IMG/VR virus record: IMGVR_UViG_3300031857_000156
Location: 79-64,078 of that record
Source: a virus
Taxonomy: Duplodnaviria > Caudoviricetes
Length of the DNA: 64,000 nucleotides
Direction: 5' to 3' (one strand)
The notes under the pieces are model-generated. The model saw only the letters and a list, made by a program, of their open reading frames with translations. It was not told the DNA's origin and ran no database searches. Positions 5,110 to 49,330 of this stretch are shown piece after piece (position 1 is the stretch's first letter; every line of letters starts with the position of its first letter). The position numbers were made by a program, and so were the translations under genes.

Positions 5110-6378
5110 TTAAAACGTGCCGCCGGGAATTAAGCCTGCATTAAATGTTGCGGTGGTTGAGACTTGGGGCGACCCTGGGTTTGTGTTGTTAAAGCGCATC
5201 ATGTCAGCGCCGTTGGTTGCGACACGCATGTCGTTCGTGCCAGCCAAATACAAGCCGGTGTCGGTGTTGCTGGTAAACGTGAAGGACGGAGCAGACACGG
5301 AGCCGTTATCGGCGTAGTAAACGCCGGTCGTGGATTGTGTCAGGATGTACAGGTCCACCCCATCGCTTAACAGGATGGCCGTGACGCCGTTTGCAAAGGA
5401 CACCGGAGCTCCGAGGCCACCATCAATTTGGAAAGTGATTGAATACCCGCTTTGTCCTGTGGCGTTATTGACCACATAAATCTGCGTAATGGCCGGCAGA
5501 GTAACGGCTAGGTTTTGAGTTCGCGTTCCCGATGTCGCAACATAAGTCTGAATGGTCGGCGCAAAAGTAATAAGACTTAATGTGTTTCCAACAATATTAT
5601 CTACGTCGTAAACGGCGGAACTGTACGTAACAACAGACTGACTTGATAAACCTATTGTAAAAAAGTGCCCTGTGTTTTTATTAAGGCAAACAAGCGCAGA
5701 ATCGCCGGGATAAAAAGTAACTGTTGAAGTGCCGTTAATTGTGTTGGCACCTTGAGATGACACTGATAATGATCCAGTGCCTCCGTTGCGGATCATTATG
5801 TACCAGCCTGTGCTTACAGATGCCGCGGTTGGGAGGGTAAACACACCGGCGCCGCCAGTCCAAACATAAGAATAAGCACGAGTAGCTTCATTGAGTGTGG
5901 GGGCTACGGCCGTTTCAATAGTTATTGTGGAGGTTTGCAATAACCCGTTTAGGTTAATTAGCCCGTTGCCGACTAACGACGCAGCATCGGCAGACGACGT
6001 GCCCGTTCCGTAAGTAAAGTTACGATAAACGCCATCGGTTGTTGAATTGTTGGTTAGATAAAAATACCGAGCTTCGCCGGCCGGGATTGATACGGACGGT
6101 GAACCGGATTGCACTTGTACCGTAAAAGTGTTGCTACCAACGTTTCTAAACAGGATGTCTGTACCGACAGACTGCTGATTTCCTGGGGGCAGCGTGATGG
6201 TTAATCCGCCCGTAGTGGCGTTGCAATCCATGATCCGGGCCACTGCCACGGTCGTTCCGCCGGAGACCGTGTAGTCGGGCCAAGATAGCTCTTGGTTGGT
6301 GCCAAATGTTAGGGCACGGTAACTGACGTCTGTAGGCTGTACTACGTCGCCTGTGAATGGTGAAGTGTATGTAGTCAT
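5110..6378 (-). CDS. Tail structural/fibre-like protein
   Basis: 422 aa, T/G/S-rich; C-terminal GSVSAPSFTFTSNTDTGLY fibre-type motif. Confidence 0.6.
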   Translation of the reverse strand: MTTYTSPFTGDVVQPTDVSYRALTFGTNQELSWPDYTVSGGTTVAVARIMDCNATTGGLTITLPPGNQQSVGTDILFRNVGSNTFTVQVQSGSPSVSIPAGEARYFYLTNNSTTDGVYRNFTYGTGTSSADAASLVGNGLINLNGLLQTSTITIETAVAPTLNEATRAYSYVWTGGAGVFTLPTAASVSTGWYIMIRNGGTGSLSVSSQGANTINGTSTVTFYPGDSALVCLNKNTGHFFTIGLSSQSVVTYSSAVYDVDNIVGNTLSLITFAPTIQTYVATSGTRTQNLAVTLPAITQIYVVNNATGQSGYSITFQIDGGLGAPVSFANGVTAILLSDGVDLYILTQSTTGVYYADNGSVSAPSFTFTSNTDTGLYLAGTNDMRVATNGADMMRFNNTNPGSPQVSTTATFNAGLIPGGTF

Positions 6379-7001
6379 TACGGCTCCAACACGTTAGTGT
6401 TGCGGTCGATGTTACGGGAGGCATTTTCTGCCTTGAGCGCGGTCATAGTGGCATCATACATTTGTTTCCAAAGTTGCAACTTGTCCGGACTCTTAAGGTA
6501 AGTCTGAGCTTGCAACAGCGTACCAAACAAAAGTGCCTGCGGCGCTTCGCGTGTTATTAAATTTTCTTGGTTTGTCGAATCCAGTGGCTGGATTCTGCTG
6601 TAGTAAATAATCTCAACCGTGTAGGCCGCGTCCGGAACCGGGGCAAGCATCCAGTGGTTGTAATCATAGTCTGCGTAGTATTTAGGTTGCCCTTGTGCGG
6701 ATTCTCCTTGATACTGCGCCACGTACTCTTGGGAGCGATGCAATACCGGCTCGCCAGCAATCTTCATCGAAACAGTCTTTCTCCAGCGTGCCGGTTTAAC
6801 TAGCACCGAACCTGGATTACCAGACGTTGTGGTTGTAGTAACTACACTTAGTTCCCACAGTGTTTTTACTTGAGCCGCAATCTCTTGCTCGGCCATAGCA
6901 ATCAGACGCGGGATTTGCTCTACAAAAGAGTCATCATCCCGCTCTGAATACCTGATCACGTCTTGGACCAGGCTGTCGTAAGTCATCACATAAGCTGACA
7001 T
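6378..7001 (-). CDS. Putative head-tail adaptor (tail tubular protein A-like)
   Basis: 207 aa with GQPKYYA...LAPVPDAAYTVEIIY motif typical of podoviral adaptors. Confidence 0.65.
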   Translation of the reverse strand: MSAYVMTYDSLVQDVIRYSERDDDSFVEQIPRLIAMAEQEIAAQVKTLWELSVVTTTTTSGNPGSVLVKPARWRKTVSMKIAGEPVLHRSQEYVAQYQGESAQGQPKYYADYDYNHWMLAPVPDAAYTVEIIYYSRIQPLDSTNQENLITREAPQALLFGTLLQAQTYLKSPDKLQLWKQMYDATMTALKAENASRNIDRNTNVLEP

Positions 7002-7004
7002 AAT

Positions 7005-8060
7005 TTACCTGGTGTAGTAATGGATGCTAGGTTGATAGTAGATAGGCGACTTATCGCGCTCTTCGTCTGCCGCCATTTGATACCATTGATCGGCTTGCTT
7101 CTCCAGGTACGCAACTCGATTCATGTCCACGTTTGGTAACTGCAACGCAACTTGGTGTGAGAGCTGTTTTTGGACTGCGCCAATCCAGCGGTTGGGAATG
7201 TACAACTCATTTGTGAGTGTACCAACATCTTGCAGCTGCTTCTCAATGATTAATTGAAAGAGCTGGAAATCATTATTAGGAATCGGCCACAGATACATCT
7301 GCGGCGTGATCTGGCGGTCAAACCAAAACTGCAGCGAGCGCTGACTTTGAAACTGTTTGTTTGGGAGATTCCAATAATCGTCACGGTTTAGCCGCGACAG
7401 AGGAATGTCTTGTTGGGTGTAAGAAAAAGATAGCTGGCGCAACGAGAATGTTGACGCCACGGTTTCACGCAGCCGGTAGAAGTTTCTCAGCGGCGTCGGA
7501 TCGATTGGGAAGTAATACCACTCACGATCTGCCAACGTGATGGTTGGCAGTGTCTCCCGCACCGTCCAGGTAATGCCGTCTTCGCTTGTCTCAAATACAA
7601 AATTATACGTCGAAGCGCCGTAAGCATTAAACCCAATCTGATAAATCCGCTGGCCCTGGGTGTACCCAGCGCCAAAAAAGTTAGCCCCGATTGTAGATGT
7701 GGCAAACGTATCTAGCGAATTATCAAACAGATTACCCGCGTTGGGGTTACTCACCGGCAGCGCTTGGGAGATAGCCGGCGTGTCAATATAACGCCAGTTA
7801 GCCTCGCGCACATCAATGGTGCCCTCTGGCAGCGTGATGATGGTCTGGTCTTTTACAGTCCCAATCAGTTTATTTTCCAGCATCCACAGGTTGACCCCGC
7901 GGTTGGAAAGATTTTGGAGAATGTAAAAGAGCGCCTGTTTGCCGGCGTCAATATACTGAGAAGTTTGCTCTTCGGCAGGCTTGCCCGCCTCTCGAAAAGC
8001 ATACTCAATCAGTTGACCAACGTTTATTTTGGTCTGGTTGGTCGTGCCCGAGTAGGCCAT
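7005..8060 (-). CDS. Putative head-tail connector/adaptor protein
   Basis: 351 aa with adaptor-like YLWPIPN motif and an inserted beta domain; synteny. Confidence 0.55.
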   Translation of the reverse strand: MAYSGTTNQTKINVGQLIEYAFREAGKPAEEQTSQYIDAGKQALFYILQNLSNRGVNLWMLENKLIGTVKDQTIITLPEGTIDVREANWRYIDTPAISQALPVSNPNAGNLFDNSLDTFATSTIGANFFGAGYTQGQRIYQIGFNAYGASTYNFVFETSEDGITWTVRETLPTITLADREWYYFPIDPTPLRNFYRLRETVASTFSLRQLSFSYTQQDIPLSRLNRDDYWNLPNKQFQSQRSLQFWFDRQITPQMYLWPIPNNDFQLFQLIIEKQLQDVGTLTNELYIPNRWIGAVQKQLSHQVALQLPNVDMNRVAYLEKQADQWYQMAADEERDKSPIYYQPSIHYYTR

Positions 8061-31072: not shown

Positions 31073-31103
31073 ACTTATGCACAATAGCCGCTAGGCGCGC
31101 CCT
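31073..31103 (-). promoter_or_regulatory. Bipartite phage promoter AGGGC-N18-GCATAAGT
   Basis: Exact spacing. Confidence 0.75.
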
Positions 31104-32541
31104 ACTGGGCGTACGGGTTGTACCGCTGCTTGCTTTTGTCATCCGCGTAGTCGTAGTCGCGCACCGGCAGGGGGTCCAGCTGTATCCAGCCCGAGTCGCG
31201 CAGCACACGCAAGGCCTGGGATAAGCTGTCCACGTAGTCATCGTGCCCACCAGACTCCGGGAACGCACACACCTGGCGCAGGAAACGCTTTGCCCAGTCA
31301 GCAAACTCCCCATGCTTTTTCACATCCTCCGGCACGTAGACCTTGCCCTTCGCTATAAGCGGAGCCACGATGTTGATACGCTGCACCTTGTCCGCTCGGC
31401 CAGGGTTGTACGCCCTGACCGGCACGCCGGCACCTTGCAGCTCCTGGATTAGCGAGATACCTGCCGACTTATCCTCCATGAGGATTAGGTCTGCCTTTCT
31501 GCCTTTTGCAAAGGTGTTGTCCGCGCCGTACACGACCTCCTTAAAGTCGTTGATTACCTTCTTGCGCAGCTCGGGATATGACAGGTGCGCATCCCACGCA
31601 TCCAGAAGGATGATGCACGTCCCCTTGTCCTGGTTCTCAAACACGCCCCAAACCTCGCAAGCCGTCGGGTCGTTGTGTGTCTTCTCACTCGTTGCCGGGT
31701 CGTATGAGGCGATCACATACTCCAGTGTCGGCGTCTCCTTTTTCATCGGCCACATCTTAAACCACTTGCGCTTCACAATGCCGGCGTCTTCTGGGTTTAG
31801 GATTTCACCATAGATCTCCTGTTTACCCAGGTCAGTGCCTTCGTAGGTCTCAAGCTGCTTGAAAAACGTCGCCGATAGGTTCTGCCTGTTGTCATAAGAC
31901 GAGGCATTTACCATGTACACGTCGCCGCCGACCTTACCCTCGGCCAGATCGACAATTAACTCCTTTGGCTTGGGTGTGGTGGTTATGATCTGCTGCACCC
32001 GGGCTATGCCTTGGTGCTTTAAGCGCAGCGTAAACTGCACCTGGTCGTACGCATCGTCGATGTACTCAAACGCACAGAGCTCATCGAACCAGGCGCCATG
32101 GAACTGCTTACCTCGATACCGCTCTGGCTCGGATCCTGGTATGCCCTGGATGATAGACCCGTTGATTAACGTGATTTCAAAGAGCGACTTGTTGTAATCC
32201 TTGATCAACGAGTGCGGAATGATGTTAAGTAACCCCGAGTCGCCCTCAAAACACGTCGCCCGAATGTCGTTTGACGTCGGCGCGGTCACTAACCAGCGTG
32301 TGTCGGGGTGTTTCCACGCCCGAATCCCAATCCAATGGCTCGCGGTGTGCGTTTTACCTGATCCCCGGCCGGCAAGCATGAGGAAGGTGTCATATTCGCT
32401 GTCCTCCGGCTCTCTTTGGTGTCCAAGCGCGCTTAATTCCCATCGAACCTGCCACAAAGCCGCGTCCAGCTGCGGTTTTGGCCAGTGTTTGTTGTTTTTT
32501 GCAAAATCCGCCAGGATTTTTTCTTGTTTTTTGCTCAACAT
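31102..32541 (-). CDS. terL: Terminase large subunit
   Basis: Walker A AGRGSGKT, Walker B AWFDE, coupling motif TTTP, nuclease YDPA and HDDYVDS. Confidence 0.95.
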   Translation of the reverse strand: MLSKKQEKILADFAKNNKHWPKPQLDAALWQVRWELSALGHQREPEDSEYDTFLMLAGRGSGKTHTASHWIGIRAWKHPDTRWLVTAPTSNDIRATCFEGDSGLLNIIPHSLIKDYNKSLFEITLINGSIIQGIPGSEPERYRGKQFHGAWFDELCAFEYIDDAYDQVQFTLRLKHQGIARVQQIITTTPKPKELIVDLAEGKVGGDVYMVNASSYDNRQNLSATFFKQLETYEGTDLGKQEIYGEILNPEDAGIVKRKWFKMWPMKKETPTLEYVIASYDPATSEKTHNDPTACEVWGVFENQDKGTCIILLDAWDAHLSYPELRKKVINDFKEVVYGADNTFAKGRKADLILMEDKSAGISLIQELQGAGVPVRAYNPGRADKVQRINIVAPLIAKGKVYVPEDVKKHGEFADWAKRFLRQVCAFPESGGHDDYVDSLSQALRVLRDSGWIQLDPLPVRDYDYADDKSKQRYNPYAQ

Positions 32542-33497
32542 ACTGAGATAAATCCCTCACTTGCCAAGAATGGTTTGTCAACAATGACATGAACGCACTG
32601 TTTCGGATCAATTTTCTTGATTTTTTGTATGTACCTGCGCTTTAGGCGCCCGTTTTTGTCTTCCAGCCTGAATGTCAGTCTATAATTCGGCCCAATCTCA
32701 GGCGTGTACAGCATGGTCTTACACCCCAGCGACTCAACCAGCGCCTGGTAGCGCCTAACTGTCGGGTAGTGGGGCTCGTAAATCGCGTATTTCTTCTCGT
32801 GGTTGTCCCACACCACATAAAAGCACGCGTCTATCAGACCCTCCAGCAGCTCCTCCCGTTGCTCGGGCGAGCTCTCCACGTAACTAAACGGCAGAGTCGT
32901 TGGGATGTCTGCGCCGGCAAACAAAAACGTGTCCTTGATCGATGGCCGGAACTCAAACTTAAAGCGGCCCACGTTAAACTGTTTCACCTTCATAAAAAAC
33001 CCGTGCCCGCGGCACCGCTTTCTCACCCGCTCCAGATCCATCTTGCCTACCATGTTCCTGCCTGACGGCCGCAACGACCCCAGCCAGATACCCATCACAT
33101 AGGGCGGCACCGGCAGATCCTTCCACGTGTACTGCAGCGGCTCGCACACTTGTATGGACCAAGTCTCTGGTTCTTTTTTAACCAGCTCGTCCATTGACAA
33201 GAGCTTGATCTTCGAGCGCAGTGGCTTAGAATACTTCTTGCCGCGGTTCTTAACCCACCGCGACAAGTTGTCTCTATACGTCTTATCTTGCAGCGGGAGC
33301 GCCATGTGAGAGTCGCCCTCTAGCCCCAGCCCATCATCAAACGACACCTGATAGCACGCGCTCGGTATGTACTGCTGCACCGATCTCACCGGCTGGGCGC
33401 AGCCCGCTTGGTCAAACACAAGATCTCCAGGGCGCAAGTCGATTGCCCGCCGCCAGCCACTAAGCGTGGGTATTGGCGTTGTCGCTGCTAGTCCCAT
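32535..33497 (-). CDS. Free-standing intein-like protein (HINT plus LAGLIDADG endonuclease)
   Basis: Block A-like GLAATTPIPTLSGW...DLRPGDLVFD; endonuclease blocks PYVMGIWLG and LLEGLIDA; C-terminal CVHVIVD...FLASEGFI; no exteins. Confidence 0.8.
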   Translation of the reverse strand: MGLAATTPIPTLSGWRRAIDLRPGDLVFDQAGCAQPVRSVQQYIPSACYQVSFDDGLGLEGDSHMALPLQDKTYRDNLSRWVKNRGKKYSKPLRSKIKLLSMDELVKKEPETWSIQVCEPLQYTWKDLPVPPYVMGIWLGSLRPSGRNMVGKMDLERVRKRCRGHGFFMKVKQFNVGRFKFEFRPSIKDTFLFAGADIPTTLPFSYVESSPEQREELLEGLIDACFYVVWDNHEKKYAIYEPHYPTVRRYQALVESLGCKTMLYTPEIGPNYRLTFRLEDKNGRLKRRYIQKIKKIDPKQCVHVIVDKPFLASEGFISVC

Positions 33498-33684
33498 GTC
33501 TCTTTGTCTTTTTCCTAGTCCGGTCGTTTAGTAGGGCGCGCTGTGATGCGCCAGGAGACAGCCAAATCTCCTTGAAGTAACCATCGAGCTTGCGCTTATT
33601 GGTGTACGCAAAGAAGATGTAGCCATCCATCCTAAGATCCCCTCTGCGGAATTGGCTGTTTGTTTGTGGGTTAATTCGCTTCAT
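33460..33684 (-). CDS. Small basic protein
   Basis: 74 aa with GGAGG RBS and a promoter motif at 33705-33715. Confidence 0.65.
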   Translation of the reverse strand: MKRINPQTNSQFRRGDLRMDGYIFFAYTNKRKLDGYFKEIWLSPGASQRALLNDRTRKKTKRHGTSSDNANTHA

Positions 33685-33730
33685 ACCAGTGCCTCCATAT
33701 ACCTACTTATACAAAAAATAAATGGGGACA

Positions 33731-33951
33731 GCTGTCAAGGGTTGCGGGGGTTGCGGGGGTCTAAACCAGGTCCCCCTCTCGGTTTATATTTTTTATTTTC
33801 AAAAAAAAAATAAAAGTGAAATAGACCCCCGCAACCCCCGCAACCCTTGACAGCAAAAAAATTTTACCAACAAAATCAATAACTTACAAAAGTGCGGCAT
33901 AGAGAAAAAAGGGCCTCAGACCCTTGACACGACCCCGGCAACCCTTGACAA
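33731..33951. repeat. Origin-like element, copy 1 (33-bp perfect inverted arms around an AT-rich core, extra iterons, IHF-like site)
   Basis: Arms at 33731-33763 and 33822-33854; AATCAATAACTTA at 33874-33886 fits WATCAAN4TTR. Confidence 0.8.
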
Positions 33952-33971
33952 CTTGTCCGCACAAGCAAAAG

Positions 33972-34002
33972 TTATCCAAAGTTATCCACAGAGTTATCCA
34001 CA
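33972..34002 (+). promoter_or_regulatory. Three tandem DnaA boxes
   Basis: TTATCCAAA at 33972, TTATCCACA at 33982 and 33994. Confidence 0.8.
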
Positions 34003-34155
34003 GGTTGCCTATTTTTAGGGTTGTCTCTATACCTGTCTCTATACGCAAAAAAATATAAAAAAAATTGCAAAAACTGTCGATTTGGGGTGGGGCCACCACC
34101 GCCCTCCCCGACAGGACCCGTTCAGGTGGTCCGTCCCTATTTTCGACCCCCGTTA

Positions 34156-34467
34156 TGTTGCAGCGCACCAATTTGCTGCATTGCAGCACCCCCAGTTAGT
34201 GCTCACTAACTTTGTGCAGTGCAACAAGTAAGTGAGCACTAACTAACCTGTATGCGGCAGTGCAACACCCCCAGCGAGCGCACACTAACTTATATGCTGC
34301 AGTGCACCACCCCCAGTGAGCGCTCACTAACATATTGCAGCGCGGCAATTAGGTTAGTGAGCGCACACTAACATGCAGGCAGGCACGCGTCTTGCCTTAG
34401 CAAGAATCATGCCAAGCTGGCCATGCAAGAATCGTGCCAGATTGCCGGCTAAGTTAGTGAGTGCTCG
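34156..34467. repeat. Array of two alternating operator-like motifs plus three sigma54-type sites
   Basis: Six TGnTGCAnnGCAnCA-like and six GTTAGTGAGCGCTCACTAAC-like motifs; GGCAY-N5-TTGC at 34381(+), 34398(-) and 34424(-). Confidence 0.8.
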
Positions 34468-34532
34468 CGAGCGCGAGCTAGACATCTGGGCATAAAGTAA
34501 CCACAACGACAGCAGGGAGAATCCAGCAGGCA

Positions 34533-34560
34533 AAAACCACCCTGAAAAAACCAGTATATT
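34533..34560 (+). promoter_or_regulatory. Early promoter repeat 1
   Basis: AAAACCACCCTGAAAAAACCAG-TATATT; one of five near-identical 28-mers. Confidence 0.8.
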
Positions 34561-34589
34561 GAGACCATTACATAACAGGAGATCTCACC

Positions 34590-34889
34590 ATGGCGGCATC
34601 CCCAGAATTTAAGCTTTACGACGCAGCAGGCACCTATCAGGCAGCCTGCAAACAGCCTGAGCAGGCAGCAGCCCTTGTTTCTTTTTTAGGCGACGGCGCC
34701 ACCATCCGCTACGGCCACACCAAAAAAGACATCGTGTGGACCGAGGGAGTGGACGGCGCAGCTTCCGACTCTTATGACCAAACAGCAAACAAGGTCGTTG
34801 ACCGGCTGTTTGCGCGCAGCGTTGAGCGCCAACGTCAAAGGGATTTTGACCGATGGGGCGGCGAGCGCCGGCTGTATCCCTTAGATTGA
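34590..34889 (+). CDS. Early hypothetical protein
   Basis: AGGAG RBS, first gene after the promoter. Confidence 0.75.
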   Translation: MAASPEFKLYDAAGTYQAACKQPEQAAALVSFLGDGATIRYGHTKKDIVWTEGVDGAASDSYDQTANKVVDRLFARSVERQRQRDFDRWGGERRLYPLD

Positions 34890-34893
34890 CCCA

Positions 34894-34945
34894 GCATCAC
34901 TGATGAGGCCTGAATGGCCGAAACCCCGGCGACGGGGTCTGATGC
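34894..34945 (+). ncRNA. Hammerhead ribozyme, type I (HH1)
   Basis: Stem I GCATCA/TGATGC, core CTGATGA, stem II GGCC/GGCC, GAAA, stem III CCCCG/CGGGG, GTC site; predicted cut after 34939. Confidence 0.93.
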
Positions 34946-34967
34946 AATCACAACAGGAGCACACACC

Positions 34968-35684
34968 ATGCATAAAACGTTACTCACCGTCGACACGAAT
35001 GCCAAGACGGTTAAGGGTCAAAAATACGGGTTCATTACAGGCATTCTGTATATGGCGCCGTCGGATCTGTCGGGCCAGCAATTCTGCCCCATGGCCAAGC
35101 TGGCCGGCTGCGAGGCAGCTTGTTTAAATACAGCCGGCCGCGGCGCCATGTCGTCAGTGCAGCGGGCCCGTCTGTCGAAAGCCCGGTTTTTCATCCAGCA
35201 GCGCGACGATTTCATGGACGTGCTCGCTGCTGACGTAGCCCGGCTGCAGCGCCGCGCTGCCAAGCTTGGCATGACGCCGCTGGTCCGTCTCAACGGCACG
35301 TCTGACATTCGTTGGGAGTCGATCCGCATGCGCGACGGCCGGACAATCTTCGAGGCATTTCCCGGCGTGCAGTTTTACGATTACACGAAGATTGCCAATC
35401 GACGCGACATTCCGGCCAATTACGATCTAACGTTTTCATGGTCCGGCGTCGCAGCATTCGCCGAGTACGGCCGGCGCGCCATCGATGCAGGCATGCGCGT
35501 CGCCGTCGTATTCCAAGACCGTCGCAGCATCCCGGCGTCGTATCTTGGCATGCAGTGCGTCGATGGCGACGACAGCGACATTCGCCACCTTGATCCGCGC
35601 GGCGTCGTCGTAGCGCTGTATGCCAAGGGTAAAGCAAAACGCGACACGTCCGGCTTCGTGATCCCGATCAAGCTTGTGGCGTAA
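34968..35684 (+). CDS. Gp88-like protein (radical-SAM-like Cys motif)
   Basis: CPMA...GCEAACL, RLNGTSDI, FYDYTK and NYDLTFS motifs; ATG at 34968 after AGGAG. Confidence 0.75.
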   Translation: MHKTLLTVDTNAKTVKGQKYGFITGILYMAPSDLSGQQFCPMAKLAGCEAACLNTAGRGAMSSVQRARLSKARFFIQQRDDFMDVLAADVARLQRRAAKLGMTPLVRLNGTSDIRWESIRMRDGRTIFEAFPGVQFYDYTKIANRRDIPANYDLTFSWSGVAAFAEYGRRAIDAGMRVAVVFQDRRSIPASYLGMQCVDGDDSDIRHLDPRGVVVALYAKGKAKRDTSGFVIPIKLVA

Positions 35685-35688
35685 TCCA

Positions 35689-35740
35689 GCATCACTGACG
35701 AGGCCTCGATGGCCGAAACCCCGGAGACGGGGTCTGATGC
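35689..35740 (+). ncRNA. Hammerhead ribozyme, type I (HH2)
   Basis: Same fold, core CTGACGA, differences confined to unpaired positions; predicted cut after 35734. Confidence 0.93.
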
Positions 35741-35762
35741 AATCACAACAGGAGAAAACACC

Positions 35763-35987
35763 ATGGACGACAATTTAGGAATGGCCGGAAAATACAACGT
35801 CTACCGTTGCGAAGATAACGCCGGGTTTTATTTCGAGCACGAGCAGTACGGTGACGAGCGCTCTGTCCGGGTCAACATTGACCCAGCGACCAAGCAGGCC
35901 TTTGACTACGAGGGCATGTACGAGGTCCCCGCGACGTGTTTGGAGTGGCTCCGCGCCAACGGCGTGAACGTCTCAGACGTCGAATAA
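35763..35987 (+). CDS. Early hypothetical protein
   Basis: AGGAG RBS; flanked by HH2 and HH3. Confidence 0.75.
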   Translation: MDDNLGMAGKYNVYRCEDNAGFYFEHEQYGDERSVRVNIDPATKQAFDYEGMYEVPATCLEWLRANGVNVSDVE

Positions 35988-35990
35988 TCA

Positions 35991-36043
35991 GCATCTCTGA
36001 CGATGGGGTGATTCCCCGAAACCCGCGAGAGCGGGTCAGATGC
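35991..36043 (+). ncRNA. Hammerhead ribozyme, type I (HH3)
   Basis: Stems GCATCT/AGATGC, GGGG/CCCC and CCCGC/GCGGG, core CTGACGA(T), GAAA, GTC; compensatory changes in all three stems; predicted cut after 36037. Confidence 0.9.
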
Positions 36044-36071
36044 AAAACCATCCTGAAAAAACCAGTACAAT
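36044..36071 (+). promoter_or_regulatory. Early promoter repeat 2
   Basis: 28-mer ending in TACAAT. Confidence 0.8.
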
Positions 36072-36099
36072 AGCAACACCACAACACGGAGAAAACACC

Positions 36100-36264
36100 A
36101 TGAGCACACCACAAACCCCAATCACTGTCAGCATGCTGTCCGAGTACATCGGCCAGCATTCGGCAGCGAGCTACTCAGCACTCGCGCTACTGGCTGAAAT
36201 TCTGAACGGCGAGATCGATCTAGAGCAGATCCGCCTCGACGTACTCGCGGAGACACAGCCATGA
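36100..36264 (+). CDS. Early hypothetical protein
   Basis: GGAG RBS with the shared ACACCATG leader. Confidence 0.65.
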   Translation: MSTPQTPITVSMLSEYIGQHSAASYSALALLAEILNGEIDLEQIRLDVLAETQP

Positions 36265-36461
36265 ACATCGACACCATCCCGCAGCAAGTAATCCGCCACA
36301 GCAAAGGGCCCGAGGGCTGGGCCCGCGCCACCATGGGCCCGATCGACGGCCGGCACTGGGACGCCACCGATCGGCAGTGGATCCAGTGGCTGCAGGACCA
36401 GGGGCAGGACGTCGTCACGATCGGCGACACCATGTATCAGATCGTCACGCCGCGGGAATAA
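36261..36461 (+). CDS. Early hypothetical protein
   Basis: ATGA-coupled to the upstream gene. Confidence 0.65.
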   Translation: MNIDTIPQQVIRHSKGPEGWARATMGPIDGRHWDATDRQWIQWLQDQGQDVVTIGDTMYQIVTPRE

Positions 36462-36487
36462 AACCACCCTGAAAAAACCAGTATAAT
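36460..36487 (+). promoter_or_regulatory. Early promoter repeat 3
   Basis: 28-mer ending in a perfect TATAAT. Confidence 0.82.
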
Positions 36488-36498
36488 GTAACGATCAC

Positions 36499-36605
36499 GG
36501 AGGCGGGAAAGTGTGGCTTATGACGGTCCGGACAGCGGCGCAGGCATCAGACCCTGCGTTGAAACCCCGGCCGAAGCTGTCGGGATTCACTGCCCGCCCG
36601 CCTCC
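36499..36605 (+). ncRNA. Candidate structured RNA directly after promoter 3
   Basis: Nested stems GGAGGCGGG/CCCGCCTCC, GACAGC/GCTGTC and GGCGCAGG/CCTGCGTT. Confidence 0.6.
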
Positions 36606-36633
36606 ACCATAACCACAACACGGAGCACACACC

Positions 36634-36912
36634 ATGCAAAAAACGTTCTATTTTTACACAGACCCCGGCCACGGCTGGGTCAAGGTGCCAGTCAATCTGC
36701 TGCACACCCTCGGCATCGCCGGCCAAATTTCGCTGTACTCGTATCAGCGCGGCGACTCGGCGTATCTCGAGGAAGACAGCGACGCCTCGCTGTTCCATCG
36801 CGCATTCTTTGATAAGTACGGCGAATTCCCAGTCTACCGGGAGCGCAACAGCGCGCACAATTATTCGCGCATTCGCAATTATGACAATTACAGGAGCAAT
36901 CACAATGGATAA
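36634..36912 (+). CDS. Early hypothetical protein (DPGHGW motif)
   Basis: GGAG RBS; FYTDPGHGW and YLEEDSD motifs. Confidence 0.75.
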   Translation: MQKTFYFYTDPGHGWVKVPVNLLHTLGIAGQISLYSYQRGDSAYLEEDSDASLFHRAFFDKYGEFPVYRERNSAHNYSRIRNYDNYRSNHNG

Positions 36913-37117
36913 GACAATCAACGACATCTTCGATCGATACTTCGCCGACTGCGAGGCCGGCTACATGGAGGCAGAGCGCCGGCGCCTCGAGCGCGCCCGG
37001 CGCCGCGCTGAGCACGACAATAATCTGCACAGCTGCGGATACCCTCCGCCGGCTGTTATCGATTTAGGCTACACCGACTACGCAAAAGACAGCGCAGCCA
37101 GCCTCAACACAGATTAA
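36905..37117 (+). CDS. Early hypothetical protein
   Basis: AGGAG RBS before the ATG at 36905. Confidence 0.6.
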   Translation: MDKTINDIFDRYFADCEAGYMEAERRRLERARRRAEHDNNLHSCGYPPPAVIDLGYTDYAKDSAASLNTD

Positions 37118-37132
37118 ATAGGGTCAGACACC

Positions 37133-37324
37133 ATGAACTTATATCAGCAAATCATCGCCAAGGCCACCGGCCTCACAGACATCGACAAGATCCGCATGGT
37201 GGAGGATTACATGCGACAGATCTACTTTCACTCAACCCTCAATTGGCAGACACAGTCCCAATTAAACCGCGCCGCGAAGGTCTCGGCCATCGAACTAGAG
37301 GCCTCCGGCTGGGATTTTAAATAG
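37133..37324 (+). CDS. Early hypothetical protein
   Basis: 63 aa, ACACCATG start context. Confidence 0.65.
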   Translation: MNLYQQIIAKATGLTDIDKIRMVEDYMRQIYFHSTLNWQTQSQLNRAAKVSAIELEASGWDFK

Positions 37325-37334
37325 GAGCAACACC

Positions 37335-37625
37335 ATGACAACGACACAACAACAGCCCAAGGTTCAGATGCTGGGCATCAAGATCAAGGCCAAGATCAAC
37401 CTTACCGCGGACGACTGGCAGCTGTACAGCGCCATGTCCGGCCGCGAGACGGCAGCCCGGCGCATGAACCGGGCCATTGAGCGCAAGCTGGCCAAGGGCG
37501 AGATCGGGTCCCTGCTGGACGTGCTGCAACCATACGCCAAGTGGGGGGCCATGGACAGCGAAAGCTACCACACGGTGTACGAGATCCTGCGCCGGCTGGG
37601 CCTGGACGACGACAAGTTTATTTAA
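37335..37625 (+). CDS. Early hypothetical protein
   Basis: AGGAG RBS. Confidence 0.7.
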   Translation: MTTTQQQPKVQMLGIKIKAKINLTADDWQLYSAMSGRETAARRMNRAIERKLAKGEIGSLLDVLQPYAKWGAMDSESYHTVYEILRRLGLDDDKFI

Positions 37626-37651
37626 AACCACCCTCAAAAAACCAGTAAGAT
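37624..37651 (+). promoter_or_regulatory. Early promoter repeat 4
   Basis: 28-mer ending in TAAGAT. Confidence 0.78.
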
Positions 37652-37675
37652 ACTAACCACAAAAGGAGCAACACC

Positions 37676-38482
37676 ATGAAACGCTACACACAATCACGCA
37701 ACGCCGACGGGTTTACGATGGACCAGCTACGGGCCGTCGCGCCGTCTATTTTCGCGGAGCAGCCGGCCGGTAAGGTCTCGGAGCGCTACGGGTTCGTGCC
37801 AACCGTCAGCGTCGTCGAGGAGCTACGCGATCGAGGCCTGCGCCCGGTATTCGCGGGTCAGACACTTTCGCGCGACGTTGACAATCGGCCGTTTGCCAAG
37901 CACCTGATCCGATTCCGCCCGACGTATGCGCCCACCATCGCCGAGCAGTCGCTGCCGGAAGTGGTCCTGATGAATTCGCACGACGGCACGAGCGGGTTTA
38001 GACTTTGGATGGGCATATTCAGGATGGTCTGCTGTAACGGCATCATCGTGTCCGACTCGGTCATGGGTCAGGTATCGGTGCCGCACCGTTCCAACGCCGC
38101 GCAAATTGTCGGCGATCGCTCGGTAGACTTTCTTGGCCGCGTCGATCACATCGAGGACCGTGTCCGCCGATTTATGGACCGCGTGCTGTCGCCGCTCGAG
38201 CAGGGCCAGCTTGCGGAGACCGCGGCGCAGCTTCGCTGGGGATCCAACCGGCCTGCGGGCCTGAAAAACGACGCGCTGCTACAGGCACGCCGTTACGAGG
38301 ACGCTGGAGCTTCGCTGTGGCTGACCTTGAACCGCATCCAGGAGAACATCGTGCAGGGCGGCATGTCGCTCGGACGCCAGCGCCGCAGGCATTCGTACAC
38401 CCGCGCGCTGGGATCGGTTAGCGAGAACGCGCGCATCAACGCGCAGCTTTGGGAGGCCGCCGATAAACTGGTGGCAGCGTAG
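37676..38482 (+). CDS. DUF932/DUF945-family protein
   Basis: APSIFA, SERYGFVPT, NSHDGTS, GIFRMVCCNG and NRIQEN motifs. Confidence 0.85.
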   Translation: MKRYTQSRNADGFTMDQLRAVAPSIFAEQPAGKVSERYGFVPTVSVVEELRDRGLRPVFAGQTLSRDVDNRPFAKHLIRFRPTYAPTIAEQSLPEVVLMNSHDGTSGFRLWMGIFRMVCCNGIIVSDSVMGQVSVPHRSNAAQIVGDRSVDFLGRVDHIEDRVRRFMDRVLSPLEQGQLAETAAQLRWGSNRPAGLKNDALLQARRYEDAGASLWLTLNRIQENIVQGGMSLGRQRRRHSYTRALGSVSENARINAQLWEAADKLVAA

Positions 38483-38497
38483 TGCAGGGGGTGGCCA

Positions 38498-38525
38498 AAA
38501 ACCACCCTCAAAAAACCAGTAAGAT
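38498..38525 (+). promoter_or_regulatory. Early promoter repeat 5
   Basis: Identical to repeat 4. Confidence 0.78.
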
Positions 38526-38550
38526 ACTAACCACAACAGGAGCACACACC

Positions 38551-38784
38551 ATGCAAGAAAAGAAACCAGATCCGTATATCCGCATGCTGGGCATGCCGGC
38601 CGAAGATCTGCGCAGGCAGATTGCCCGCCGACTGGACGAGGGCGAGGACCTGACGATGATGATCGCATCGATCCTGTCCGACGCGCAGGAACTTATCCAG
38701 GGCCGCGATCAAACGCGCGCGCTGCAGGCGATCAATCGCGCCAAGTGGATTTTATTCGAGCACCGAGAGGAGACACAGCTATGA
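38551..38784 (+). CDS. Early hypothetical protein
   Basis: AGGAG RBS, ATG at 38551. Confidence 0.7.
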   Translation: MQEKKPDPYIRMLGMPAEDLRRQIARRLDEGEDLTMMIASILSDAQELIQGRDQTRALQAINRAKWILFEHREETQL

Positions 38785-39149
38785 AAAGCTTTTGGAACAA
38801 CGACAGCGATCTGCAGGACGTTGCAGATCGATTGGCAGAGTTAGTGCCGGCCATGGGGGCCGTCGAGCAGCCACGCAAGAACAAGGCGCTCGAGCGATTC
38901 CGTCGCGCATCGAACTGCTATTATGACCTGTACAACAACGGCCTATGCAACCGCAGGCAGGAGTTTTATAGGATTTTCAAGGTCCGCGTGAGCAACTTCT
39001 ACAAGTATAGGTATAGCCACAGCCTGCGCGGCCGCTACCGCGACATTGACTTCGACAGAATCATGCCAGTCGTCGAGCCCATCATGCGCGAAATCGTGAT
39101 AATTGCGGCTAGCGAGCAAGGCATCGAGGTGAAAGAGGCCACAGCATGA
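38781..39149 (+). CDS. Early hypothetical protein (YYDLYNNG motif)
   Basis: ATGA-coupled, AGGAG RBS. Confidence 0.7.
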   Translation: MKSFWNNDSDLQDVADRLAELVPAMGAVEQPRKNKALERFRRASNCYYDLYNNGLCNRRQEFYRIFKVRVSNFYKYRYSHSLRGRYRDIDFDRIMPVVEPIMREIVIIAASEQGIEVKEATA

Positions 39150-41771: not shown

Positions 41772-41989
41772 TGTCAGGGGTTGCCGGGGTCGTGTCAGGG
41801 ATATGGACACGAGTTTCCATATACCACGCCCTCTGCAACCCATTGATTTAATTGATGAAAAAATTTGCTGTCAAGGGTTGCGGGGGTAGCGGGGGTCTAT
41901 TTCACTTTTATTTTTTATTTTTTAAAAAGAAAAATAAATTTAAGAGGGAAGTAGGTTTAGACCCCCGCAACCCCCGCAACCCTTGACAG
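41771..41989. repeat. Origin-like element, copy 2 (inverted relative to copy 1)
   Basis: Same palindromic arms at 41867-41899 and 41958-41989, AT-rich core, IHF-like site at 41836-41848; abuts the primase gene. Confidence 0.8.
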
Positions 41990-49249: not shown

Positions 49250-49330
49250 GGGGTTGGAATAGTTTCGACGTGGGCCAAGGCCTAAGCGGCAACCTTGCGG
49301 ACCTGGGTGCGATTCCCAGCAACTCCACCA
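49250..49330 (+). ncRNA. Mini-tmRNA (tRNA-like domain only)
   Basis: GGGGTTG/CAACTCC-A-CCA acceptor with G3:U70, stemless D-loop ending TTCGAC, GGAC linker, T arm CTGGG-TGCGATT-CCCAG; only about 30 nt between the halves. Confidence 0.85.

Follow-up and report, generated by a model that had tools for sequence, protein, structure and literature searches.

Hammerhead ribozymes clustered on one strand have been described from prophages, where they flank single genes or small groups of genes that "are not constant" and where they were proposed to process long transcripts to gene-length mRNAs (Perreault 2011, PMC3088659). According to the same paper, triple prophage arrays from three bacteria cut in vitro and one of them cut also in Escherichia coli, and a further hammerhead, the HHphage of haloviruses HF1 and HF2, is located 13 nucleotides (nt) before the start of an early gene on a polycistronic transcript, with a 5′ end mapped within 3 nt of the cut. 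The processing hypothesis is repeated in a 2019 review, which calls the function of phage hammerheads "largely elusive", and no study settling their role turned up when the literature was searched for later functional work. The locus considered here lies in a 64,000-nt stretch (positions 79 to 64,078 of IMG/VR record IMGVR_UViG_3300031857_000156; below, the window) of the contig of an uncultivated phage, which is complete at 64,078 bp, has direct terminal repeats and comes from a collection of viral contigs. With three coding-strand hammerheads, HH1, HH2 and HH3, among plus-strand genes of phage DNA that also carries a terminase, the window falls into the clustered gene-flanking class; it is a clean new example of a known arrangement and does not settle the function of phage hammerheads. 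The gene-flanking arrangement itself, which had been the point of interest in the original prediction for this DNA, was already published in 2011 and is common.

We propose that HH1, HH2 and HH3 are constitutive self-cleaving type I ribozymes in the intercistronic gaps of a rightward unit, whose transcript would self-process to gene-length mRNAs, and to this reading we assign a probability of roughly 0.75. The added interest of the locus lies in a gap in Rfam, a constant distance from the cut to the next start codon, the alternation of the ribozymes with a promoter-like motif, and a cassette-like mosaicism of the genes between them.

The three ribozymes and their fold

The hammerheads occupy three consecutive gaps separating plus-strand genes:

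34892..34946, plus strand: HH1, type I hammerhead, predicted cut 34939/34940 (C17 = 34939)
35687..35741, plus strand: HH2, type I hammerhead, predicted cut 35734/35735 (C17 = 35734)
35989..36044, plus strand: HH3, type I hammerhead, predicted cut 36037/36038 (C17 = 36037)

All three follow a single plan of 55-56 nt, in which a 6-bp stem I formed from both ends of the element encloses the core CUGANGA, a stem II of 4 bp and its 5-nt loop, GAA, a stem III of 6 bp whose first pair is A-U and whose loop is of GNRA type, and GUC. Loops close stems II and III but not stem I, which makes the topology that of type I. In HH1, stem I is GCAUCA/UGAUGC, the core CUGAUGA, stem II GGCC/GGCC, followed by GAA, and stem III ACCCCG/CGGGGU; HH2 has the stems of HH1 and the core CUGACGA, position 7 being free, and HH3 combines the same core as HH2 with the stems GCAUCU/AGAUGC, GGGG/CCCC and ACCCGC/GCGGGU. 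The stem II loops are UGAAU, UCGAU and UGAUU and the stem III loops GCGA, GAGA and GAGA in HH1, HH2 and HH3, respectively. Stem I of HH1 can be extended by four base pairs (GAUU/AAUC), an extension absent from HH2 and HH3.

The check with Infernal and public hammerhead models, suggested along with the original prediction, did not confirm the elements, as no copy reached a gathering score (Rfam families RF00163, RF00008, RF02275-RF02277 and RF03152 were considered), and class membership was therefore judged by the explicit filter given in the methods of Perreault 2011 (PMC3088659). The filter specifies C3 U4 G5 A6 N7 G8 A9, G12 A13 A14, the pair A15.1-U16.1 and H17 (not G), and excludes mispairs at 1.1-2.1, 10.1-11.1 and 15.1-16.1 as well as insertions in the core. 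The C3-A9 core is present in all three copies, as are GAA, the A-U pair and C17. HH1 and HH2 agree with the filter at every sequence point, and HH3 at all but the insertion, as an extra U stands between A9 and G10.1; read as a bulge it lets all pairs form, whereas read as position 10.1 it gives a U-C mispair. The extra U is found together with a GGGG/CCCC stem II in at least four more loci among the fetched loci of relatives, which are denoted by L-numbers (L004/L123, L127, L271 and L272), and in the hammerhead of chrysanthemum chlorotic mottle viroid (CChMVd) a U at the same position raised the trans-cleavage rate 3-4 fold, as reported in PMC3705267. Because the variant recurs and the U is tolerated in CChMVd, HH3 is likely an active variant.

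Comparison of the copies with one another and with their relatives confirms the three as genuine hammerhead motifs, as far as sequence and predicted folding can tell. First, each of the 48 pair cells in the three copies holds a standard pair, and in 5 of the 16 pairs both partners differ between copies; HH3 has one of these double changes in stem I and two each in stems II and III. Shuffling matched this pairing and covariation in none of 500 trials, and slid controls were 26-40% paired. When six more copies from relatives are included (a 10-row alignment), the double changes extend to 12 of the 16 pairs and pairing holds in 148 of 148 cells, in an alignment that was fitted to the model, which favours the covariation result. 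Next, the minimum free energy fold is the hammerhead fold in each copy, at -24.9 to -25.6 kcal/mol with z values of -3.4 to -3.8. Finally, a covariance model (R2) built here from nine family members scores HH1, HH2 and HH3 at 79.1, 76.3 and 73.9 bits (E ~1e-22 to 1e-24), and with filters off finds no fourth copy in the window, where the next best hit reaches 10.9 bits (E 0.77). The loose core pattern by itself does not exceed chance (5 matches, 7.6 expected) and was for this reason not used as evidence.

The upstream stop codons end at 34889, 35684 and 35987, so that stem I starts 4, 4 and 3 nt after the stop, and the copies are spaced 795 and 302 nt apart. From the predicted cuts of HH1 and HH2 there are 28 nt to the ATG at 34968 and 28 nt to the ATG at 35763, and from that of HH3 62 nt to the ATG at 36100. 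The original prediction had described three complete type I hammerheads a few nucleotides past stop codons, with compensatory stem changes in HH3, with HH1 and HH2 cutting 28 nt before the next ATG, and with units of 795 and 303 nt delimited by cuts at 34939, 35734 and 36037. The description holds throughout: core and 16 stem pairs are present in each copy, five pairs are kept by double changes, and the distances, unit lengths and predicted cut sites match the sequence.

A type I subfamily outside the curated models

The copies belong to a well-defined, abundant type I subfamily that is missed by the curated models of Rfam, which means that standard annotation will overlook it. Its distinguishing traits are a stem I of 6 bp between a conserved A-G and a conserved C-A, and a stem II of 4 bp closed by a U-N-A-N-U loop. 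At gathering scores, an Rfam search of the whole window returned no hammerhead and only a tmRNA-like (transfer-messenger RNA-like) match, which is described below. In a permissive search, RF03152 (RAGATH-1-hammerhead) scores HH1 and HH2 at 19.0-24.8 bits (HH1 at 20.9-24.8) against a gathering score of 56.3, the best score of RF02275 (Hammerhead_HH9) is 15.1 bits against 52, likewise in HH1 and HH2 only, and HH3 has no match to any Rfam hammerhead model. The core, stem I and stem III of HH1 and HH2 do align with RAGATH-1, but the matches span positions 26-77 of the 77-position model, whose extra 5′ part is absent here. A truncated 10-nt "Zeta-pan" match at 36049-36058 was dismissed as a local chance match.

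Searched with a subfamily pattern, viral contigs yielded at least 120 stretches and prokaryote assemblies, taken as one genome per species, 67 stretches. The covariance model confirms 115 copies in the 80 listed viral loci (L084-L163) and 53 copies in the 67 prokaryote-genome loci, the latter including arrays in Nitrosopumilus, Verrucomicrobia, Chloroflexota-like and Streptomycetaceae assemblies. Three to five copies per locus are seen in assemblies labelled Promineifilaceae and Streptomycetaceae, in an unclassified bacterium and in the archaeal Nitrosopumilus (among L243, L247, L233, L269 and L223). The ribozymes are not tied to GP88, the protein family of the gene between HH1 and HH2, given that only 3 of 80 fetched loci with GP88 homologues carry subfamily hammerheads in the fetched flanks, namely L004 with three, L008 with two and L061 with one.

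Several positions that the search pattern leaves free are nearly invariant in the 115 viral copies: A and G before stem I (113 and 107 copies), C and A after stem I (106 and 113 copies) and an A in the middle of loop II (103 copies). Stems I and II are moreover nearly fixed in length across the family, and stem III is variable. The near-fixed stems together with the invariant flank and loop bases suggest that loop II makes a defined tertiary contact with the end of stem I. Inspection by eye of nine copies for a covarying pseudoknot between loop II and the flanks gave no consistent pairing.

The placement of the family relative to genes is equally regular. Of the 107 copies with enough flank, 90 stand between two open reading frames (ORFs), an upstream one of 50 codons or more that ends at the ribozyme and a downstream one of 40 codons or more whose start lies 8-80 nt past the cut, whereas in the flipped orientation 8 of 109 do. 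The distance from cut to start has a median of 26 nt and lies within 18-40 nt in 80 of 94 cases, and such constant sense placement at about 26 nt argues for translatable single-gene messages. Arrays of 2-5 copies are found in 21 of the 80 viral loci, always on the same strand and with 176-1841 nt between copies apart from one gap of 7018 nt, so the spacings in the window are typical of the family. In the L147 array (6082-8008, minus strand) five copies are packed into 2 kb, two of them on either side of GP88.

A proposed self-processing transcription unit

Genes of the region run rightward on the plus strand from about position 34500 on. Those around the ribozymes, and the terminase gene, are as follows:

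31102-32541, minus strand: large terminase gene (Pfam/PHROG family searches)
34590..34889, plus strand: gene A, 99 aa, which opens the unit and has HH1 after its stop (ORF list)
34968..35684, plus strand: GP88-family gene, 238 aa, with HH1 and HH2 on either side (Pfam PF17338, E 6.2e-41; phrog_1617, E 1.7e-70)
35763..35987, plus strand: gene C, 74 aa, with HH2 and HH3 on either side; conserved protein, function unassigned
36100..36264, plus strand: gene D, 54 aa, the first gene past HH3 and a promoter-like motif (ORF, with ribosome-binding site (RBS) by eye)

Gene A has no Pfam or PHROG family above threshold and no homologue among the fetched loci, and gene D likewise has no Pfam or PHROG family above threshold. 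Gene C, to judge from seven homologues of mostly 74-75 aa and 69-99% identity, is a real conserved gene. DNA nearly identical to 34400-36500 is present in 16 sequencing runs (at least half of sampled words), a first lead on habitat; 12 of the runs, from several different studies, carry the labels lake water, freshwater or fungus metagenome, and the remaining four may represent the source sample.

A repeat, D1, sets the frame in which the ribozymes lie. It consists of the 22-nt AACCACCCTGAAAAAACCAGTA followed by a TAnnnT hexamer and occurs in five copies between 34533 and 38536, with none expected by chance and none elsewhere in the window:

34533-34571, plus strand: D1, preceding gene A
36044-36082, plus strand: D1, abutting the last base of HH3, its hexamer ending 28 nt before the ATG of gene D
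36460-36498, plus strand: D1
37624-37662, plus strand: D1
38498-38536, plus strand: D1

Each hexamer ends 24-29 nt before a start codon, and D1 is probably a phage-specific promoter. Since one copy stands before gene A and the next at the end of HH3, the three hammerheads lie inside a single motif-to-motif unit, in the order motif, gene A, HH1, GP88, HH2, gene C, HH3, motif, gene D. A simple scan of 33400-39000 for intrinsic-terminator-like sites on the plus strand found none. The core of D1 is also present in the relatives L008, L113, L147 and L273, and in L008 and L147 a hammerhead following GP88 is itself followed directly by a D1-like motif. The sequence past the HH1 cut appears in a comparable setting:

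34940..34967, plus strand: 28-nt leader of the GP88 message past the HH1 cut, with RBS AGGAG (repeats D3, D5 and D10)

It recurs past HH2 at 35735-35762, and both leaders match the one past D1 at 38498 (repeats D3 and D10), which implies that each such gene receives a similar short leader, by initiation or by ribozyme cleavage. The region may accordingly be described as a mosaic early-gene array, each gene of which is preceded by a hammerhead or by the motif, provided that the motif is indeed a promoter and the timing early.

We infer cleavage of the window's copies, the promoters, the early timing and the effects on stability and translation, and the proposed course of events is the following. 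Transcription of the unit would probably begin at the motif at 34533, and the ribozymes would fold as they are transcribed and cut after C17 at 34939, 35734 and 36037. The transcript would thereby fall into four pieces: gene A ending 3′ in the body of HH1, messages of 795 nt for GP88 and of 303 nt for gene C, and the downstream RNA. Because of the type I topology, the folded ribozyme would stay on the upstream piece, which would end in a 2′,3′-cyclic phosphate, and the downstream piece would begin with a 5′-OH and a 28-nt unstructured leader that contains the RBS and six nt of stem I. Such a leader has about the length expected of leaders made from the promoter-like motifs of the phage. The likely effect would be to uncouple adjacent early genes in stability and translation, with HH3 ending the unit just ahead of the next promoter-like motif. 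If so, the placement of the cut about 26 nt before the start would constitute a concrete, testable design rule, and because motif and hammerhead alternate before early genes, 5′ ends made by ribozymes and by promoters could be compared within one phage. Four further runs with an RNA label, which share only about 0.05 of the sampled words, yielded contigs alone, mostly from relatives at less than 95% identity, and showed neither pile-ups of ends nor joints; two of the four are probably DNA. In a metatranscriptome, a 312-nt contig spans an HH3-like motif uncut; it could represent DNA carry-over or a relative, and these runs weigh neither for nor against cleavage.

In favour of the self-processing reading are the cleavage of triple prophage arrays described by Perreault 2011 and the family-wide placement of the motif before start codons. 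Several points weigh against it. The curated Rfam models do not recognise the copies, and the core of HH3 is not strict-consensus and would fail the strict filter of Perreault. Stem I is only 6 bp and no covarying loop-to-flank pairing was found, and as no tertiary contact was located in this way, activity at cellular Mg2+ is assumed. Terminating ribosomes could hinder folding, as the stops lie 3-4 nt before stem I, and the model also leans on an inferred promoter role of the motif and an inferred "early" timing. Lastly, 4 of 18 consensus hammerheads were inactive in vitro according to Perreault 2011 (PMC3088659). The same figure would suit inactive relics or structural hairpins that act uncut as 3′ stabilisers or pause sites, and a fold of about -25 kcal/mol could by itself protect a 3′ end; we nevertheless consider relics very improbable, as the unpaired core (CUGANGA, GAAA and H17) is invariant in nearly all 115 relatives and the stems vary freely. 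Part of this core is fixed by the search pattern, but the copies in the window and those found through protein homology were not so chosen.

The fate of the cut messages also has to be considered. The original prediction had suggested that the 5′-OH ends could stabilise them, which is not a safe assumption, because glmS, the only well-understood bacterial self-cleaving ribozyme, lowers expression through degradation by cellular ribonucleases (RNases) after cleavage, as summarised in a 2019 review. Any stabilisation would thus depend on the host and be decided by its RNases. The glmS precedent suits a decay trigger, in which the cut would mark the downstream message for 5′-to-3′ degradation in a host with RNase J, shortening or grading distal early expression. 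The enzyme of glmS decay is RNase J1, which acts on the 5′-OH end, and RNase J is present in Alphaproteobacteria; a Mesorhizobium phage gives the sole DNA match in the phage collection, with 75% identity over 120 nt. A decay trigger nonetheless seems doubtful, as the near-constant distance, some 25-30 nt, of the cut from starts with an intact RBS fits translatable messages better.

The original prediction had alternatively proposed ligation of the units into circular mRNAs. The ends of the 795-nt unit, the 3′ strand of HH1 stem I and the HH2 body, are compatible because stem I is identical in HH1 and HH2; they match at 6 of 6 stem I pairs and could in principle pair, rebuild a hammerhead and ligate. 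Across the family, 17 of 32 adjacent tandem pairs show cross-compatibility in stem I, a property shared by 5.3% of random pairs that join different loci. However, stems II and III behave likewise in these tandem pairs, with cross-compatibility in 12/32 (random 17%) and 14/32 (random 10%), respectively; four pairs are compatible in stem I alone and four in stem III alone, and tandem compatibility so alike across stems is explained by shared ancestry through duplication. Moreover, the 303-nt unit has a U-U mismatch at 1.1-2.1, next to the cut, and a family search of the complete phage genome found no RtcB or RNA_ligase family gene. Circular or spliced products were sought, and none detected, in the work described by Perreault 2011 (PMC3088659). 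The circular model is left unsupported by these observations, and we judge it extremely unlikely.

The mosaicism of the region bears on the possibility that the hammerhead and its leader persist mainly as a marker or mediator of the exchange of small early genes by recombination, with which cleavage would be compatible. HH1 and HH2 with their leaders, up to the ATG, are 93% identical across 80 nt (repeat D5) and flank one gene. The genes between hammerheads differ in relatives: L147 is syntenic with the window downstream and has the order hammerhead, GP88, hammerhead, but GP88 is the only flanked gene held in common, the other three hammerhead-flanked genes having no counterpart in the window. 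In three related loci gene C is directly followed by a hammerhead (3/3) and preceded by a regulatory region or promoter-like motif, with no hammerhead before it; in one of these, L271, gene C is 99% identical and stands first after the regulatory region, and another hammerhead variant and other genes follow. The block of 93% identity between the window and L271 starts at 35754, in the shared leader, and ends within the hammerhead. The stop codon of the upstream gene, furthermore, often lies within the ribozyme, as UAG at positions 1-3, UAA in stem I, UGA of the CUGA core, or UGA/UAA in loop II, and all three frames are closed by 67 of 115 ribozymes, compared with 13 of 115 reverse complements and 497 of 2300 shuffles. 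On this evidence the 55-nt module might, tentatively, be a plug-and-play junction that ends upstream translation, cuts, gives the next gene a promoter-like short leader and serves as a crossover point for swapping early genes. The swapped small genes would then perhaps be anti-defence genes, and hammerheads and the promoter-like motif interchangeable ways of giving cassettes their own 5′ ends.

Against exchange as the main function, the catalytic core is invariant and the stems covary in more than 100 copies, which indicates selection on the RNA fold and not on DNA homology alone. Any phage is expected to show mosaic boundaries where intergenic sequence is conserved, irrespective of what that sequence does, the three copies of the window close only one or two frames, and few relatives were compared. 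A role confined mainly to cassette exchange is thus rather unlikely, and self-processing into single-gene messages remains the preferred reading.

The surroundings of the unit contain further repeats. Two copies of an inverted repeat, GC-rich (GCTGTCAAGGGTTGCGGGGG... / ...CCCCCGCAACCCTTGACAG) and enclosing a very AT-rich core, lie at 33731-33853 and 41867-41989, 8136 nt apart, and bound the block that bears the hammerheads; TTGACA occurs inside (repeats D7, D8, D13 and D14), and one copy is the best promoter-like match on the plus strand. Operator-like repeats at 34171-34372, upstream of the first D1, comprise the 66-nt D9 twice and the 17-nt D15 three times, with the palindrome-like AGTGAGCGCTCACT inside, and form the best-conserved DNA of the region in L004, L008, L147, L271, L272 and L273. 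The tmRNA-like match is an 81-nt element at 49250-49330 on the plus strand, which passes the Rfam tmRNA gathering score (53.3 vs 47 bits). It has the tRNA-like ends only, namely an acceptor stem, a T arm and an encoded CCA, with 19 nt in place of a 312-nt middle; its third acceptor pair is G-U by eye, and ARAGORN calls no tRNA or tmRNA. Repeats of GGGGAAACCGG and an AT-rich stretch lie downstream of the element, which could mimic the ends of a phage tmRNA or be the relic of an attachment site.

Comparison with described systems

The closest counterparts of the locus are the prophage arrays of Perreault 2011, with which it shares same-strand clusters that flank genes of phage origin and an inconstant set of genes between them. 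It differs from those arrays in being a complete uncultivated phage contig with terminal repeats and not a prophage of a cultured bacterium, and in that all three copies are of type I, stem I being fixed at 6 bp and stem II having 4 bp. The strict subfamily pattern matched no Agrobacterium, Azorhizobium or Clostridium scindens among the 67 genome stretches, and the tested examples probably belong to other subtypes.

The insert in HH3 has a parallel in the CChMVd (+) hammerhead, where it occupies the same place between A9 and G10.1, as described by De la Pena and Flores 2001 and summarised in PMC3705267; the viroid ribozyme, however, is of type III with A as its natural insert, whereas HH3 is a type I phage element with U. 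The halovirus HHphage resembles the copies of the window in lying shortly before the start codon of a phage gene, but it occurs only once, has a variant core and belongs to an archaeal virus, in contrast to three copies located 28-62 nt before starts. The glmS ribozyme is likewise a self-cleaving element borne on a bacterial mRNA whose cut alters the fate of the downstream message; it has another fold, depends on a metabolite and leads to decay, and the hammerheads of the window show no ligand-sensing part. Self-cleavage in synthetic insulators of the RiboJ type yields a defined 5′-OH leader, by which translation becomes independent of upstream sequence, and the ribozyme with an added hairpin is kept on the downstream RNA. 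In the window, by contrast, the ribozyme would stay upstream and six nt of stem I would pass to the downstream message, in an arrangement that is natural and not engineered.

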